Source: a virus. Taken from it: a stretch of DNA of 64,000 nt. Shown here one piece after another: positions 2,112-45,783 of the stretch; position 1 is the stretch's first letter, and the number at the start of each line of letters is the position of its first letter. Made by a program: the position numbers and the translations under genes. The notes below the pieces were generated by a model. It saw only the letters and a program-made list of their open reading frames with translations. It was not told where the DNA came from and did no database searches. Location: positions 45,531 to 109,530 of the IMG/VR virus record IMGVR_UViG_3300036861_001106; one strand, given 5' to 3'.

Positions 2112-2770
2112 GACACGACATCTTCCACGTCAGCGAGCGGTACCCAGTGCCCATCTCCAGCTTTGCAGTGCCCTCGGACATCACCATCTTTGGCGGCCGC
2201 TGGGCAGATGACACGTATTACGCGGATTACGCGGGCATTGCCAGGAAGTACCGGCCCGAGGAGATCCTGGAGATCGGGGTGCGCTTCGGTTACTCCGGCA
2301 TTGCGATGTGCCTGGGTGCCCTTGCAGGACGCCCAAATTACGATCCAGAGGTGTGGATCCTCGGCTACGATGGAATCGACGCTTGCTTCTTCAGTCACCC
2401 TGAAGATCCAGCAGTCTCAAGCAACGAGGTTGCCAGCGCGAACTTCGCAGCCCAGACGCCAAGCGTTGGTGTTGAGCTGTTTCGCCACGACACACGAGCG
2501 GGGCTGCCCGAGAAGGTGTGTCAGTACCTTGGAGTCTATGACCTTGTCAACGTTGACGGGGACCACTCCTACGAGGGGTGCTACCGCGACCTTGTCAACA
2601 TCTGGCCCCTGACTGCCCCTGGTGCGGTTGTGATCGTAGACGACACGGGGATGACCGACGTGAAGCGCGCGGTGGAGCAGTTCCGTGACGAGCACCTTGC
2701 GGAGTTGCAGGCGTTCCAGTGGCACGAGAATGAGCGTGGGCTGGCGCTCCTGCAGCGGAACGCAGGCTGA
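2108..2770 (+). CDS. class I SAM-dependent methyltransferase (Methyltransf_24-like)
   Basis: ILEIGVRFGYS, DLVNVDGDHSYEG, GAVVIVDD; GTGA overlap with upstream stop. Confidence 0.85.
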   Translation: MRHDIFHVSERYPVPISSFAVPSDITIFGGRWADDTYYADYAGIARKYRPEEILEIGVRFGYSGIAMCLGALAGRPNYDPEVWILGYDGIDACFFSHPEDPAVSSNEVASANFAAQTPSVGVELFRHDTRAGLPEKVCQYLGVYDLVNVDGDHSYEGCYRDLVNIWPLTAPGAVVIVDDTGMTDVKRAVEQFRDEHLAELQAFQWHENERGLALLQRNAG

Positions 2771-3300
2771 TGGGAAAGCGTGCCTACTTTGTGCTTGGCC
2801 CCGAGAACTCCGGCACGAGGTTCTTCCGGCGGTGCCTCTGCTCGGCAGGGTGCTACGGTGACCCGGACGCCGGTGAGAGCACCGATGACCTGTGCTTCCG
2901 CGACAAGCCAAGCAAGCTCGCACTTGCGCGCAGCGTGCCCAATGGGCTGCTGGTGCCGGACGTGCTTGCCATCGCGGGGCTGCTCAAGGCAGCGGGGTAC
3001 CGGGTGACGCCCATCCTCATCTCTCGGCGCAGCGACTTCGTGGTGGCAGGGCAGTTGAAGAACTACGAGGGGCGCACCTTCGAGGCGGCGCGGCAGACGA
3101 TCCTGGTGGCGGCCAAGCTGGCCTACGAGCTGGCGAGCTGGCTGAAGACGACCCTGGTCGTGGTGCCGTACGGGCTCTTCGTGACGGTGCCGGAGGTGCG
3201 GGGACACCTGTTTGCGCAGCTCGGGCTGCCGCCGCCAACCGTCGAGGTCGTCAACGCCAATGAGAAGTACGGGCTGGCAGGGCTGCTGCTGCCGTTCTGA
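2770..3300 (+). CDS. sulfotransferase-like/P-loop protein
   Basis: FVLGPENSGTRF resembles the PAPS-binding loop; VVPY..F....E....LFAQLGL C-terminal pattern. Confidence 0.5.
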   Translation: MGKRAYFVLGPENSGTRFFRRCLCSAGCYGDPDAGESTDDLCFRDKPSKLALARSVPNGLLVPDVLAIAGLLKAAGYRVTPILISRRSDFVVAGQLKNYEGRTFEAARQTILVAAKLAYELASWLKTTLVVVPYGLFVTVPEVRGHLFAQLGLPPPTVEVVNANEKYGLAGLLLPF

Positions 3301-24954: not shown

Positions 24955-25292
24955 GGGTGACCTGCGTCCTCGCTGACCTTGGTCTTCATTGTCTCCTGAA
25001 TCAACGCCTCCAGCTTTGCGATCCGCTCGTTGGCGATGTAGAGGTCAGTCTTGACGGCGCTGAGGTTGGAGTTCGTCAGCTCGTGGATCTTGTCCAGCTT
25101 CTCGTCGGAGCGCGCTGCAATCGCCTTCGTGGTGTCCTTCAGGTCCTGCACCTTCTCGTCGACGTTGTCAACGGTGCGCGCGGTCACCGCCTGGAGCGTC
25201 TGGATCCGCGCGCTAGTCCTCCAGGCGGTCACGAGGTTGGTCAGCACGAGCCCAACCGCAGCGATGATGGTGAGAATCTCCTGACTGGTCAT
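24951..25292 (-). CDS. N-terminal TM coiled-coil protein
   Basis: hydrophobic N-terminus, heptad repeats, IHELTNSNL. Confidence 0.6.
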   Translation of the reverse strand: MTSQEILTIIAAVGLVLTNLVTAWRTSARIQTLQAVTARTVDNVDEKVQDLKDTTKAIAARSDEKLDKIHELTNSNLSAVKTDLYIANERIAKLEALIQETMKTKVSEDAGHP

Positions 25293-25400
25293 CGGGCACA
25301 GCACCTCCAAATTGGGCGTTAGCTGCTTCTTGCAGCTCGTTGTCCCCGGTGACGCATTCAGGCAGTCGCAATGCGTCAGTAGCCGTCGTCGGGTTTGAAG

Positions 25401-27428
25401 TTACTCTCTTGTTCTCTCCTCCGCCTGCCTCTTCCAGTGCTCCATTCTGGCAACTGCGATCTCACAGTACCTGGGGTCGCCCGGCGGCTCCCCCTGCTCG
25501 ATGCCCAGGAAGCGGAACCCCTCCAGGACCGCCGCGCAGCCAATCGAGCCTGAGCCGCAGAATGGATCGATGAGGAGCCCCCCTGGCGGGGTGATCAACT
25601 TGCACAACCATCTGCACAGCGCAATACTCTTTACAGTGGGATGGTTGTTCTTGACCTTGACCGGGGCCCACCTAGGTTCAGCCTCCAAGCCCCCTGGATT
25701 GACGCGGTTCAGGATGGCATGGTCGAGTTCGTCGAGGCCCGCCTCTTTTTCGGAGCGGCTCGCCTTCGCCTGGTATTTCCACAGTATCGGGTCGATCTCG
25801 CCATCCCCATCGTTTCCACGGGTGGCGGCGGCAATGGCAAGCTGAACAGAGCCACACCACCGTCTCAACTTTTGAATAGTCGGAATGATGCCGATGCTCT
25901 CCAGGTCTTCCGCAATCGGTGCAAGGCTTTGGATCAGGATTTGCTCTTTGAGCGCGCAGATAGAATCCTGTCCAGGAATTAACCCCCGGCAAAGGTCTGG
26001 CTTTTTCTCGGCAATAGCTTGAGCAATAGTTGTTCCGCATCTCTCGCACAGGCTTGCCACAGACCAGACATGATGGGCGATCTGTTCGGGAAGCGATGCC
26101 GGAGCACTTAGCAGAACAGAAGATTCGCTCGTTGGATTCATATTCCCAGAATCGCTTCCCGCACTGGCGACAGAAATGCTCTCGCTTTGGTTTCTGACCT
26201 CGACTTCGGCAGGTTGATGTCTTTGAGCACGAGTTTGAACAGAAACGCCTGCTTGGTTTCGTTGGAGCAAAGAGGTTACCGCACCATTCACAGGGTCGCA
26301 ACTTGTCGGTTGATGACATAAAAAGCACTTTCTCGCGTCTTGGAAGTTCGGAAAGAATCGCGAGGGCGACTTGAGCAACTTGGACGCCTTGCAGCCGTCC
26401 TCATCCAGCTTGCGCACCGGGCAACCCGGCACACATGCCCAGAGGTCCACCACCTCCAGCCCCTCCGCGTCGCCGTAGCCCTCAAAGGTGTCGTGCCAGT
26501 CCTCGTGCTCCTTGTCGTCCTGATTGTAGAACGGGTTCTTCTTGCCTCCCTGAGTCACGGTCGTCGGGCAGCCCTTGACCTTCTGCGTGCCGACAAGCAC
26601 ACAGTGTTCGCTGTGGGTGAGCAAGAGATTCGGAGCGTGTCGACCCTTCTTCCCCCGGCGCGCCTGCACCTCCTCCGGCGGCATGTCGCGGATCTTGAAG
26701 GTGTCCTCGCCAAGGTAGCCGTTAGTCCGCCCATAGCTCCCTGTCTTGTGCCAGCCGGGGACATCGTCGCTGGTGCGACGCACCTCGCAGGCACCGACGT
26801 TCAGGGCACCCACACCCCACTTGAGCAGGTTGTCGGCGATTGACCCCTTGAAGGGCTTCTGAACCAACCACCAGCACTCAACTGCGGGCTTGGTAGCGTT
26901 ACCCCAGCCCAGCCACTGCTGACCCTCTTCGGAGGTGGGCTCCAGCACCTTGCTCTGCAGACGCTCACGGTCGGGGTTACTGGCGAAGGCGTTGCCCCTG
27001 ATGTCCTGGTTGGTCCAGGGGCGCTCCCCTACCGCGACTGGCTCGGCACCAACCTTGCGATCCACGTCGATGGCCACGTTGCGATTCTTGGGAAAGCCCT
27101 GACCGTGGATGTGGTAGATGCACTCCTGCACGAAGAAGCCAGCATCCTCCAGTGCCCAGGCAGTCCAGTGGCTAGTCCGGGGAAAGGCCCACACCAGGCC
27201 GTAGGCACCTGGCTTGAGCACCCGGTGTGCCTCCCGCATGACCTCGCTGAGCCATGCCACCCACTGATCTCGGCCGCCCTTGTTGCCGTCCCAGGCGCGC
27301 CCCATGAACGAGGCGCCCCCCGGGGGGTCGGTGCAGAGCGCATCGATGCTGCTGGAGGGCAGCTTCCGCAACACCTCAAGAGAGTCACCGAGGATGACCT
27401 TGCCCCAGCTTCCCACGCGCCAGATCAT
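25401..27428 (-). CDS. N6A/N4C DNA methyltransferase (beta class) with a ~175-aa in-frame insertion
   Basis: GDSLEVL, CTDPPG, RVLKPG, GQGFPK, NNHPTVKS, LIDPFCGSGS; insertion lies between SRFFPNF and WKYQAKAS. Confidence 0.9.
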   Translation of the reverse strand: MIWRVGSWGKVILGDSLEVLRKLPSSSIDALCTDPPGGASFMGRAWDGNKGGRDQWVAWLSEVMREAHRVLKPGAYGLVWAFPRTSHWTAWALEDAGFFVQECIYHIHGQGFPKNRNVAIDVDRKVGAEPVAVGERPWTNQDIRGNAFASNPDRERLQSKVLEPTSEEGQQWLGWGNATKPAVECWWLVQKPFKGSIADNLLKWGVGALNVGACEVRRTSDDVPGWHKTGSYGRTNGYLGEDTFKIRDMPPEEVQARRGKKGRHAPNLLLTHSEHCVLVGTQKVKGCPTTVTQGGKKNPFYNQDDKEHEDWHDTFEGYGDAEGLEVVDLWACVPGCPVRKLDEDGCKASKLLKSPSRFFPNFQDARKCFLCHQPTSCDPVNGAVTSLLQRNQAGVSVQTRAQRHQPAEVEVRNQSESISVASAGSDSGNMNPTSESSVLLSAPASLPEQIAHHVWSVASLCERCGTTIAQAIAEKKPDLCRGLIPGQDSICALKEQILIQSLAPIAEDLESIGIIPTIQKLRRWCGSVQLAIAAATRGNDGDGEIDPILWKYQAKASRSEKEAGLDELDHAILNRVNPGGLEAEPRWAPVKVKNNHPTVKSIALCRWLCKLITPPGGLLIDPFCGSGSIGCAAVLEGFRFLGIEQGEPPGDPRYCEIAVARMEHWKRQAEERTRE
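25678..26319 (-). CDS. Zn-finger HNH homing endonuclease nested out of frame inside the MTase gene
   Basis: repeated CxxCG...FCSxxC modules and CTDCG...HRHHSDYSK...VVWLCSACH...H; lower GC. Confidence 0.8.
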   Translation of the reverse strand: MSSTDKLRPCEWCGNLFAPTKPSRRFCSNSCSKTSTCRSRGQKPKREHFCRQCGKRFWEYESNERIFCSAKCSGIASRTDRPSCLVCGKPVREMRNNYCSSYCREKARPLPGVNSWTGFYLRAQRANPDPKPCTDCGRPGEHRHHSDYSKVETVVWLCSACHCRRHPWKRWGWRDRPDTVEIPGEGEPLRKRGGPRRTRPCHPEPRQSRGLGG

Positions 27429-28329
27429 CGTCCCCCCTCCGTCGGCAGCGGCGCGGGGCCTGGCGCGTTGGCCGGGCCGTTGGGCACGAGCACGGTGGGC
27501 GGGGCCGGCGCAGCCACGAACGGCAGGTACACGCCGACGTAGAGGATCACGAACAGGATGAGGATGACGAGGACGAGCACCTCAAACACCCGCAGGTGCC
27601 ACCACTCACCGTTGTCACTCCCAGCCACCCAGCGTGGCATTATTTTTCCCCCTCCTCCTTCTCGTCCCCCCACACACCCCAGTCCTGCAGCAGCTCGCGC
27701 GCCAGGACGGCCACGAAGGCCACCACCAGCAGGAAGGCTGCCCCCAGGATGATGTTGGCGGTGGTCAGGTGCCCCGCGAGCCACGTGAGTGCGAGTTCCA
27801 TGGCTTGATTCTACCGGGGAGATACGTCCTTGTCAACTACCTGCGCCTGAAGAGGCACGGAGCAGCAGCCCCGTGCCTCCAGGTCAGGGGACAGGCGGGG
27901 TTGGCGGCAGCGCCGCCTCCAGCTTGTCAGCAGCGGCCGTCAGGTCGCCCATGACAGCCTGCAGCGCAGCCACCTGCGGGGTGAAGTCGCCACCCCCACC
28001 GTCACCAGCCTGCAGCGCAGCCACGACGGCGTCGACGTCGGTGCCGACGCGCGTGACGGCCGCCTGCACGTCGCTGATGGCAGCAGCAAGGTCAGCCAGG
28101 GTTGCCATTAGTTTCTCACCTCCCAGCCGGGCCAGCGTGGCCTCGTAAAACGCGGCGAACGCAAGCGCCGCAGTCAGCAGCAGGACGAACAGTTCCATCA
28201 GAGGAACACGAACAGGAGTGTCGCGATGAGGCCGACGATGCCGAGCACGATCGCCGGGATCACCATCCCCAGAAAGTGTAGGCTGAGCAGCCCGGTGAAG
28301 ACCCCCATGGCGACTTTGCCAATGCTCAT
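27425..28329 (-). other. cluster of very small membrane/coiled-coil peptides
   Basis: several short hydrophobic ORFs with SD or coupled starts (e.g. 28198-28329, start 27801, 27884-28107). Confidence 0.5.
27808..27836 (-). promoter_or_regulatory. sigma70 promoter, leaderless transcript
   Basis: TTGACA-17-TAGAAT, ATG 6 nt downstream (27801). Confidence 0.75.
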
Positions 28330-45515: not shown

Positions 45516-45783
45516 CGGATTACCCTGTCTGGTGGGGCAGAGCAGTGCCCCCTCCCTTTTTCAGCCTACTCGCCGAGCACCTGCGTGTAGCTCTCCCGGT
45601 ACTCAGCGTCATCGATGACCTTCTTCAACTCGTTCTTGTCGTTGAACAGCACCCAGTCGCCGGGCTGACCCAGGGTCACGCTGATTCCGCCAGCGACCTT
45701 CACTCGTAGGGGCTCCTCAAGCTGCACCGCGCTCAGCACGCTGGAGAGCTTCGTCACCTGCCGCATCGTTCCTCCTCTCAGGC

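Follow-up and report, generated by a model that had tools for sequence, protein, structure and literature searches.

A hidden out-of-frame HNH endonuclease gene within an uninterrupted phage DNA methyltransferase-like gene: a probable splicing-free homing cassette

Introduction

The DNA methylase gp65 of mycobacteriophages has been reported to carry the ShiLan domain, a stop-free insertion of 202 codons (Gosselin et al. 2023, PMC9957025), which hides an HNH endonuclease gene in its third reading frame and lacks features of both introns and inteins (Arsenault, Gosselin & Gogarten 2025, Genes 16:178, PMC11855218). The start of that insert repeats sequence lying downstream of it, its AlphaFold model is loop-like, and a further out-of-frame nuclease-like open reading frame (ORF) was described inside the uninterrupted phage methylase ORF of Pacc40 gp60 (PMC11855218). 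Here we have studied an arrangement of this type in a viral DNA, IMG/VR record IMGVR_UViG_3300036861_001106, of which positions 45,531 to 109,530 were analyzed (64,000 nucleotides, herein called the window, to which all positions refer). In this window, a methyltransferase-like gene on the minus strand carries an insert that also encodes, in a shifted frame, a zinc-ribbon protein with an HNH-type core.

In our interpretation, the insert is probably a homing-endonuclease cassette of the 'hidden out-of-frame HNH' kind that requires no splicing, with the methyltransferase being read straight through as a protein of 675 amino acids (aa). An HNH gene with three zinc ribbons would thus have invaded, in the −1 frame, the conserved motif formed by SRFFPNF and KYQAKAS in a phage beta-class DNA methyltransferase-like gene, and would be removed neither from the RNA nor from the protein. 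As the length of the insert is divisible by three and host-frame stops are avoided in its codons, ribosomes would read through it, giving a 675-aa methyltransferase. In this protein the target-recognition region would be separated from the C-terminal half, which binds S-adenosylmethionine (AdoMet), by a loop of 188 residues that is for the most part poorly ordered, with some helical parts. The methyltransferase would still work with this loop, while the nuclease would be made separately from its own start, either ATG 26319 or GTG 26328, in the window copy by starting internally on the methyltransferase mRNA. It would then cut insert-free alleles at the site encoding RFF..KAS, whereupon the element would be copied in by recombinational repair.

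The locus shares many properties with the ShiLan insert, the layout of which we re-derived from the DNA of phage ShiLan (JN020143.1). The host gene is of the same methylase family, with the window methyltransferase matching methylases of A1, E and F1 mycobacteriophages; the insert is in phase, around 190–200 codons long and stop-free in the host frame; and the third (+2 = −1) frame contains a complete zinc-ribbon HNH gene, the start of which lies a few codons inside the insert. In both cases the insert start resembles the sequence behind the site, no intron or intein signature is seen, AlphaFold predicts a low-confidence loop with a small helical part, and the nuclease does not co-diverge with its host gene. 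Comparison of the nuclease profiles with hhalign gave a probability of 94.4% (E 9e-8, 88 columns), mostly over the ribbon CxxCGK.F..YPS...YCS..CSN, which shows distant homology. The insertion sites are however different, with ShiLan being invaded between GWGTALKP and AFEPIVVARKP instead of between SRFFPNF and KYQAKAS; ShiLan has an uninterrupted SRFFPVFRYEAKAP, and both ShiLan and Pelly read SRFFPVF(K/R)Y(Q/E)AKAP intact. Moreover, the ShiLan nuclease has an I-HmuI-like core (EHRHIME..VHH.NG..DNR..NL) placed between two ribbons, whereas the window family has three N-terminal ribbons followed by a C-terminal CxxC-HRHH-CxxCH core. Most members of the window family differ also in having a sigma70-like promoter and a Shine–Dalgarno sequence inside the insert, and while ShiLan is known from ten nearly identical mycobacteriophage copies, the window family has at least 46 non-redundant members. 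Judged from these comparisons, the window element is a new family of the published kind and not the ShiLan domain itself.

Other known systems are further removed. Pacc40 gp60, which could be set apart by its description only, involves another methylase family, another site and another nuclease; its free-standing copies upstream of insert-free methylases recall one of the loci presented below (L001). The HNH nucleases of group I introns, such as I-HmuI, I-TevIII and I-PfoP3I, likewise occupy conserved sites of phage genes with a patchy distribution suggesting homing, but they are spliced at the RNA level by a recognizable ribozyme core and their host frame is not kept open. Inteins with homing endonucleases are also inserted in phase in conserved motifs and translated with the host protein, but the window insert has neither a Hint domain nor a starting Cys or Ser, and its nuclease lies in another frame, so that the translated insert is not the nuclease. 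Finally, Friedrich et al. in 2007 reportedly found mobE, a free-standing homing endonuclease gene, to split the nrdA gene of Aeromonas phage Aeh1. That would be another invasion of a conserved gene without intron or intein where host function is kept by a work-around, although with two reassembling polypeptides in place of the single read-through chain proposed here.

Results

An open host frame in nearly all homologous inserts

An earlier reading of the window, made from its sequence alone (the sequence-only reading), had noted a lower-GC segment splitting the SRFFPNF and YQAKAS motifs, a coherent zinc-finger HNH protein in the −1 frame and a stop-free methyltransferase frame, all of which we could confirm. 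Alignment with the nine closest insert-free relatives positioned the 564-bp insert exactly between SRFFPNF and KYQAKAS, with a GC content of 52.5% as compared with 63.4% for the two flanking parts of the methyltransferase gene (here called exons) and 64.9% for the window. The host frame has no stop over the 188 codons of the insert, and the 216-aa ORF in the shifted frame holds three zinc ribbons and a core motif.

A pattern search using the nuclease showed that 4 IMG/VR loci and 68 metagenome loci encode relatives, corresponding to 46 lineages after removal of near-duplicates, with 42–63% identity to the window nuclease. In every locus showing methyltransferase pieces, the nuclease was found between the N- and C-terminal methyltransferase parts at the RFF / Y..KAS motif, and in all loci with flanking pieces it was in the −1 frame relative to the methyltransferase. 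The N- and C-terminal parts shared one frame in 34 of 35 loci. It was also clear that the host frame across the nuclease contained no stop in any of 62 loci, where permutation of synonymous codons gave an expectation of 1.55 stops per locus, and the third frame had on average 6.9 stops per locus. The permutation probability of an open frame was 0.004–0.57 for the individual loci, with a summed log10 P of −59 over the 62 loci, which are not fully independent (46 being non-redundant). The evidence that the host frame is open beyond chance in the family as a whole is overwhelming. The sequence-only reading had pointed to common host-frame stops in homologous inserts as the finding that would speak against it, and this is not what was seen: besides the 62 open loci, four more were open under genetic code 25, and a TAA was present only in locus L066.

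The family was found in soil, freshwater, sediment and sludge metagenomes, in a 485-kb phage and in code-25 phages. A search of 50,697 phage records with the nuclease using tblastn found only LR745208.1 and distant free-standing HNH proteins, with no ShiLan-type match. The code-25 loci (L064, L065, L070 and L072; 31–36% GC) were considered as decayed copies on the basis of six apparent stops in the nuclease frame, but this could be ruled out. All internal stops in both of their frames are TGA, at positions where relatives have Gly, and translation with code 25 (TGA = Gly) leaves both genes whole, with TAA or TAG as their terminal stops. These loci look like phages of Gracilibacteria/Absconditabacteria-type hosts that carry the hidden-HNH element.

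The nuclease in the shifted frame

The hidden ORF ends with TGA at 25678–25680 and encodes three CxxC...CxxC ribbons followed by C..CG..GEHRHH.DY...VWLC..CH...H. An alignment of 38 family sequences contained 25 invariant columns, among them all ribbon and core Cys and His residues, with the bracketing CxxC pairs and the His hairpin (CTDCG..GEHRHHSDY...VWLCSACHCRRH) being invariant throughout. The nuclease was modeled using AlphaFold 2 (AF2) with a predicted local distance difference test score (pLDDT) of 89.6, and a structural search with VIA-align using residues 114–173 gave HNH nucleases as the top matches (4h9d, Z 4.0 over 56 residues at 3.5 Å; 5h0o, Z 3.8), followed by SciA, Ref, IscB, McrA, Cap5, Hpy99I and I-HmuI, all with Z ≤ 4. 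Low Z scores are to be expected, because the domain has only about 50 residues. When the whole nuclease model was used in Foldseek only zinc-finger (C2H2) arrays were found, and PHROGs gave an HNH family only at E 0.007, with the match located on a zinc ribbon. The motif together with the enrichment of HNH folds suggests that the protein is an HNH nuclease.

A similar case was observed in Escherichia phage BUCT618 (L077, OM735461.1), where the −1 frame of a coding sequence (580–2442) annotated as a 620-aa methyltransferase contains a hidden ORF of 202 aa at 990–1595, which is not annotated in the record. This ORF encodes three zinc ribbons and an HNH-like CAMCG..EAHH...CVCHQCH, and hhalign related it to the window nuclease family with 97.5% probability (E 9e-12). 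Its insertion follows GSGFPKSANVSKQIDQQ, with SKAIDK being repeated behind the insert; there are 0 stops in the host frame, as compared with 9 in the third.

Insert-free relatives and probable mobility

The nine closest methyltransferases (P0004–P0008 and P0010–P0013; 46–59% identity, 497–542 aa) read SRFFP.F.YQ.KPS (..KPSRSEKE..) without the 188 residues. In two of these insert-free proteins, P0005 and P0008, 10–13 extra residues are found exactly at the insertion site (FQ-SDPSDEIDFVTW and FP-GELPDEFVPW), which resemble the first two and the last approximately ten residues of the window insert (GDGEIDPILW) and are probably in-frame deletion scars of a lost element. Across loci, nuclease identity did not correlate with the identity of the two host exons (Spearman 0.03 and 0.10, as compared with 0.33 for exon versus exon), and the nuclease (0.56) was more conserved than the exons (0.42–0.45). 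The nuclease thus does not co-diverge with the host gene, which fits homing. Taken with the empty relatives and the scars, this is consistent with a homing cycle in which elements invade, decay and are lost. The contigs of two soil-metagenome DNA runs holding the stretch, possibly the source of the viral contig and uninformative on expression or polymorphism, contained no insert-free joint or variant.

The 485-kb phage (L001 / L038, LR745208.1 = Ga0209518_1000006) showed a distinct arrangement at L001 2990–5488. There, a C-terminal methyltransferase fragment (ARFKYAPKAS...) having no N-terminal partner upstream shares its DNA, in the relative frame usual for the family, with a nuclease copy that contains one in-frame TGA (L001 3100), and a full insert-free methyltransferase (SRFFYCAKAS) follows directly after the nuclease and fragment. 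Possibly, the nuclease and the 3′ exon together form a cassette that is parked next to an empty allele.

Selection in the two frames

Since codon position 3 of the nuclease is codon position 2 of the host frame, a synonymous change in the nuclease always alters the host-frame peptide. Comparing pairs with 40–70% aa identity, we found that 0.53–0.54 of the fourfold third positions were identical in the dual-coded region, as compared with 0.31–0.42 in the single-coded exons of the same loci. Omitting codons with T at position 2, which are the only ones able to create host-frame stops, the values were 0.517 for the dual-coded region versus 0.32–0.33 for the exons. Base composition as the cause of this similarity was rejected with a control using different columns, which gave 0.31–0.32 for the dual-coded region and 0.28–0.29 for the exons, leaving a site-specific excess of 0.20–0.23 versus 0.03–0.05. 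The identity in the methyltransferase frame was 0.358, as compared with 0.251 in simulations where synonymous codons were resampled with the exon codon usage of each locus and conditioned on zero host-frame stops (z = 67).

The constraint could be followed to individual codons. In the nuclease block CGKPVRLMR, Pro was encoded by CCT in 43 of 46 loci and Val by GTG in 44 of 46, with Leu solely as CTC or CTT, and these fixed codons write L-C-x-x-C in the host frame. Nearly invariant host-frame residues were C368, C371, L460, C461, C464, L498, L502, T517, L521 and G526, and the blocks IL.Q.LA..A and TDTIPTT.SL..LFGSV..AI were also conserved. Taken together, both frames look to be under selection. 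At the 5′ end of the insert, RFF...RF.Y was found duplicated in homologous inserts of relatives.

These patterns raise the possibility that the overlap of about 140–190 codons is a true dual-coding region with both products under purifying selection. The overprinted host-frame peptide would then have gained a conserved structure, consisting of two or three helices and CxLC...LCxxC (possibly a zinc site), which lets the methyltransferase fold around a complete internal transcription unit comprising promoter, Shine–Dalgarno sequence and gene. We regard this as nearly an even prospect, falling slightly short of it. The four code-25 copies lack both Cys motifs, so the zinc site, if real, is not universal.

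A step further would be that the element is no longer purely selfish, with the host-frame peptide now being a working methyltransferase domain and the nuclease perhaps also serving the phage, for example against competing phages. The site-specific host-frame constraint beyond stop avoidance, the ten nearly invariant residues from C368 to G526 and the helices predicted by AF2 at residues 446–474 and 490–536 would agree with such a role. However, the closest relatives do without the insert, two of them seem to keep nothing but a scar, some family members lack the Cys motifs, and nuclease and host do not co-diverge. Furthermore, in most relatives the bases encoding CxLC adjoin or overlap the −35 region of the promoter of the insert itself, perhaps being conserved for that purpose, and the AF2 confidence is low. 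A working domain is therefore, in our judgment, rather unlikely.

State of the host gene and of the window copy

The 675-aa ORF product matched PF01555 with E 3.7e-18 (66.7 bits versus the curated Pfam cut-off of 26.7) and is, by its motifs, a beta-class DNA methyltransferase-like protein of N6/N4 type. Both exons are intact over their full length in comparison with the relatives, with the AdoMet-binding motif I (FxGxG) kept as DPFCGSGS at residues 621–628. In motif IV the aromatic residue is absent, with DPPGG in place of the catalytic DPPY (residues 32–36; 27320–27334, minus strand). In all of the nine closest relatives, the residue after DPP is G, S, A or C, and DPPY was found only in more distant family members, whereby the missing aromatic residue is evidently a conserved subfamily trait and not a sign of decay. 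The activity of this subfamily may differ from ordinary N6A/N4C methylation. The same DPP-small-residue subfamily (the window gene, P0004–P0013 and L001 3941–5488) has VWA.PRTSHW instead of LAFGGTRT.HR. An AF2 model of the whole methyltransferase, based on a 25-sequence alignment, had a confident core, with the insert (residues 360–552) mostly at pLDDT < 50 apart from the helices mentioned above; residues 217–355 were also at pLDDT < 50, and the model was too poor in these two regions to place the loop.

Several observations weigh against a read-through methyltransferase with a nested homing nuclease. Taken alone, the window has a probability of 0.23 of being open by synonymous-codon permutation of its HNH gene, which is not significant. 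The subfamily-wide replacement of DPPY by DPPGG leaves the methyltransferase activity itself unproven. The family showed a host-frame stop only in L066, a TAA at 1038–1040 just after RFFKTC, where the near-identical sibling L067 reads GAA (a single G-to-T change); the stop could represent a dead allele or a sequencing error. The synonymous constraint may in part stem not from the host-frame peptide but from functions at the nucleotide level, for example RNA structure or an internal promoter. With regard to the nuclease, neither the window protein nor 38 family members matched an HNH family in Pfam, the best result of a profile search in the PDB was the IscB HNH at only E 0.32, and the structural scores supporting the HNH assignment are weak (Z about 4). 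In the window copy, as in L015, L040 and L068, RFF and the ATG are separated by 32 nt, and this short 5′ part contains neither a promoter nor a Shine–Dalgarno sequence. The window copy has also lost the usual stop of the family after ...RPDTVEIP (VRP..I.I(L/P) end), thereby running on for 36 codons over the downstream YQAKAS exon (25678–25785), and may be ageing or past its active phase. Finally, no RNA runs were found among the listed runs holding the stretch.

Some of these points, namely the chance-level openness of the window alone, DPPGG, and the loss of nuclease expression signals and stop, would also be expected if the insertion had killed the methyltransferase, with the open frame being a chance event in GC-rich DNA and the gene a decaying pseudogene. 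But 62 open frames out of 62 with in-phase halves cannot be due to chance, the exons retain 46–59% identity to relatives over their full length with motif I conserved, and DPP followed by a small residue is common to all of the closest relatives. We thus hold decay of the host gene to be very improbable.

Absence of splicing signatures

As stated also in the sequence-only reading, we found neither a group I core nor the intein C-terminal HN-C/S/T. Rfam gave no match to intron families at E ≤ 10 within 25000–27600, nor any at gathering score in 17 homologous loci, and there is no room for an intron core because the nuclease ORF fills the insert and overruns its end. The in-frame peptide showed no Hint family (Pfam) or blocks; it begins with Q (or P if the boundary is shifted) and ends with ...DPILW followed by Lys.

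An intron carrying the HNH ORF, be it of group I, of an undescribed self-splicing type or bypassed in translation, with the open host frame being incidental, would still have some appeal: HNH genes often ride on phage group I introns, and the insert opens with a degenerate copy of downstream exon sequence that recalls P1/P10 pairing, as also remarked for the ShiLan case (PMC11855218). Splicing would however require neither phase nor an open frame, yet the insert is always divisible by three in length, with the frame always open, and the synonymous-site constraint has the pattern of a translated second frame. The unrecognized splicing or bypass mechanism offered as an alternative in the sequence-only reading is thus not needed, and together with the empty Rfam searches this leaves an intron scarcely credible.

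Initiation of nuclease synthesis

Of 39 relatives, 38 have an ATG immediately ahead of the first ribbon, with a Shine–Dalgarno-like sequence in front of it in 23 and a −10-like box in 20 of the 39. The promoter-like sequence was often TTGACA-17-TGnTATAAT, situated either about 33 nt upstream together with a Shine–Dalgarno sequence or at a distance of 12 nt, which would suit a leaderless mRNA. Such sigma70-like promoters, located inside the methyltransferase ORF 12–40 nt before the nuclease ATG, were seen in L008, L029, L032, L033, L048 and others. For the window copy we tentatively, and with low confidence, prefer internal initiation on the methyltransferase mRNA.

The sequence-only reading had correctly noted CTTTTTA just before the HNH ATG and the lack of a clear Shine–Dalgarno sequence, but its proposal of −1 frameshift expression was not supported. 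A conserved slippery site was considered and rejected, since canonical heptamers between RFF and the nuclease N-terminus occurred in only 9 of 39 relatives, at scattered positions and with a frequency no higher than in control exon sequence. Although a programmed slip at this U-rich run would enter the nuclease frame exactly at the ATG, fusing methyltransferase residues 1–370 to the HNH protein so that it borrows a DNA-recognition part, and would account for the nuclease always being in the −1 frame, hardly any credence can be given to it: CTTTTTA is not X XXY YYZ, most relatives have their own start signals as well as nuclease-frame stops upstream of the ATG, and the constant frame is more simply explained as the one cheapest to keep stop-free (1.5 stops expected versus about 9).

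Feature coordinates and other invaded positions

The coordinates of the features are compiled in Table 1.

Table 1. Features of the methyltransferase-like gene and its insert (window positions)
Feature	Position	Strand	Description or basis
Methyltransferase ORF, uninterrupted	25401..27428	−	675 aa + TAA stop; PF01555, phrog_67 (PHROG 67)
Methyltransferase part 5′ of insert	26343..27428	−	aa 1–362, end ...KSPSRFFPNF; alignment with insert-free relatives P0004–P0013
Putative mobile insert, read in two frames	25779..26342	−	564 nt = 188 codons (Q363–W550); alignment, homologous inserts at same site in about 65 loci
Methyltransferase part 3′ of insert	25401..25778	−	aa 551–675: KYQAKASRSEKE, then NHPTVKS, then motif I DPFCGSGS
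Degenerate direct repeat, copy 1	26328..26351	−	PNFQDARK, resembles WKYQAKAS; read from sequence
Degenerate direct repeat, copy 2	25758..25781	−	WKYQAKAS, true continuation of methyltransferase motif
CxLC motif, methyltransferase frame	26316..26327	−	C368 F L C371; nearly invariant in family
LCxxC motif, methyltransferase frame	26037..26051	−	L460 C E R C464; fixed synonymous codons in HNH frame
Methyltransferase-frame insert peptide			stretch SLCERCGTTIAQAIAEK within predicted read-through product
CTTTTTA run	26319..26325	−	directly before ATG 26319; no canonical slippery heptamer, not conserved
Hidden HNH endonuclease ORF (predicted)	25678..26328	−	−1 (= +2 offset) frame; 216 aa from GTG 26328, 213 aa from ATG 26319
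Zinc ribbon 1	26227..26292	−	CEWCG...RFCSNSC; invariant Cys columns in alignments; model resembles YacG/FCS fingers
Zinc ribbon 2	26104..26172	−	CRQCGKRF...IFCSAKC; invariant Cys columns
Zinc ribbon 3	26011..26070	−	CLVCGKPVREMRNNYCSSYC; most conserved block of the family
HNH (beta-beta-alpha-metal) core (predicted)	25822..25923	−	CTDCGRPGEHRHHSDYSKVETVVWLCSACHCRRH; invariant C, H, R, H, H, Y, W, C, C, H, H columns; AF2

The PF01555 phage methylase family was found to be invaded at no fewer than four positions. These include the sites of the window and ShiLan inserts, the GFPKS site, where both inteins and another hidden HNH occur, and the stretch preceding HPTVKP. Inteins between YG and SGFPKS were seen in L046, L052 and ShiLan. 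A further hot spot lies between AKAS..ER and NHPTVKP, as seen in L078 (phage ShiLan) at 2700–3220, L032 at 900–1800, L067 at 610–1110 and L070 at 1700–2200; L032 has another zinc-ribbon ORF there, and the ShiLan methylase, which has a stop and a frame change at that spot, is annotated as gp65, gp66 and gp67.

Discussion

The interpretation of the sequence-only reading can be retained in its central part, as the comparative evidence supports an overprinted mobile element with the host frame kept open in a tolerant loop. Its frameshift idea cannot be retained, and the novelty that it implied was too high, considering that the ShiLan layout had been published.

With this family, 'read-through' is supported as a third way, beside introns and inteins, by which a homing endonuclease gene can occupy a motif that looks essential and leave the host gene unbroken. 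As the published cases consisted of ten near-identical copies and one other insert, host-frame selection could previously only be guessed at, while the window family is old and diverse enough for such selection to be tested. To our knowledge, this is the first statistical demonstration of host-frame selection, with regards to both openness and sequence, for inserts of this kind. Should the overlap be truly dual-coding, it would be among the longest same-strand phage overlaps with measurable selection on both frames, as well as a natural example of a domain born de novo through the action of a selfish element.

As the family further shows, an insert of this kind can constitute a whole transcription unit within a gene. 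Nested genes of this type are missed by gene callers and annotators, with the host being labeled as a long methylase with an unknown domain. Having multiple invaded sites, the PF01555 family is a good model of selfish elements competing for one gene.

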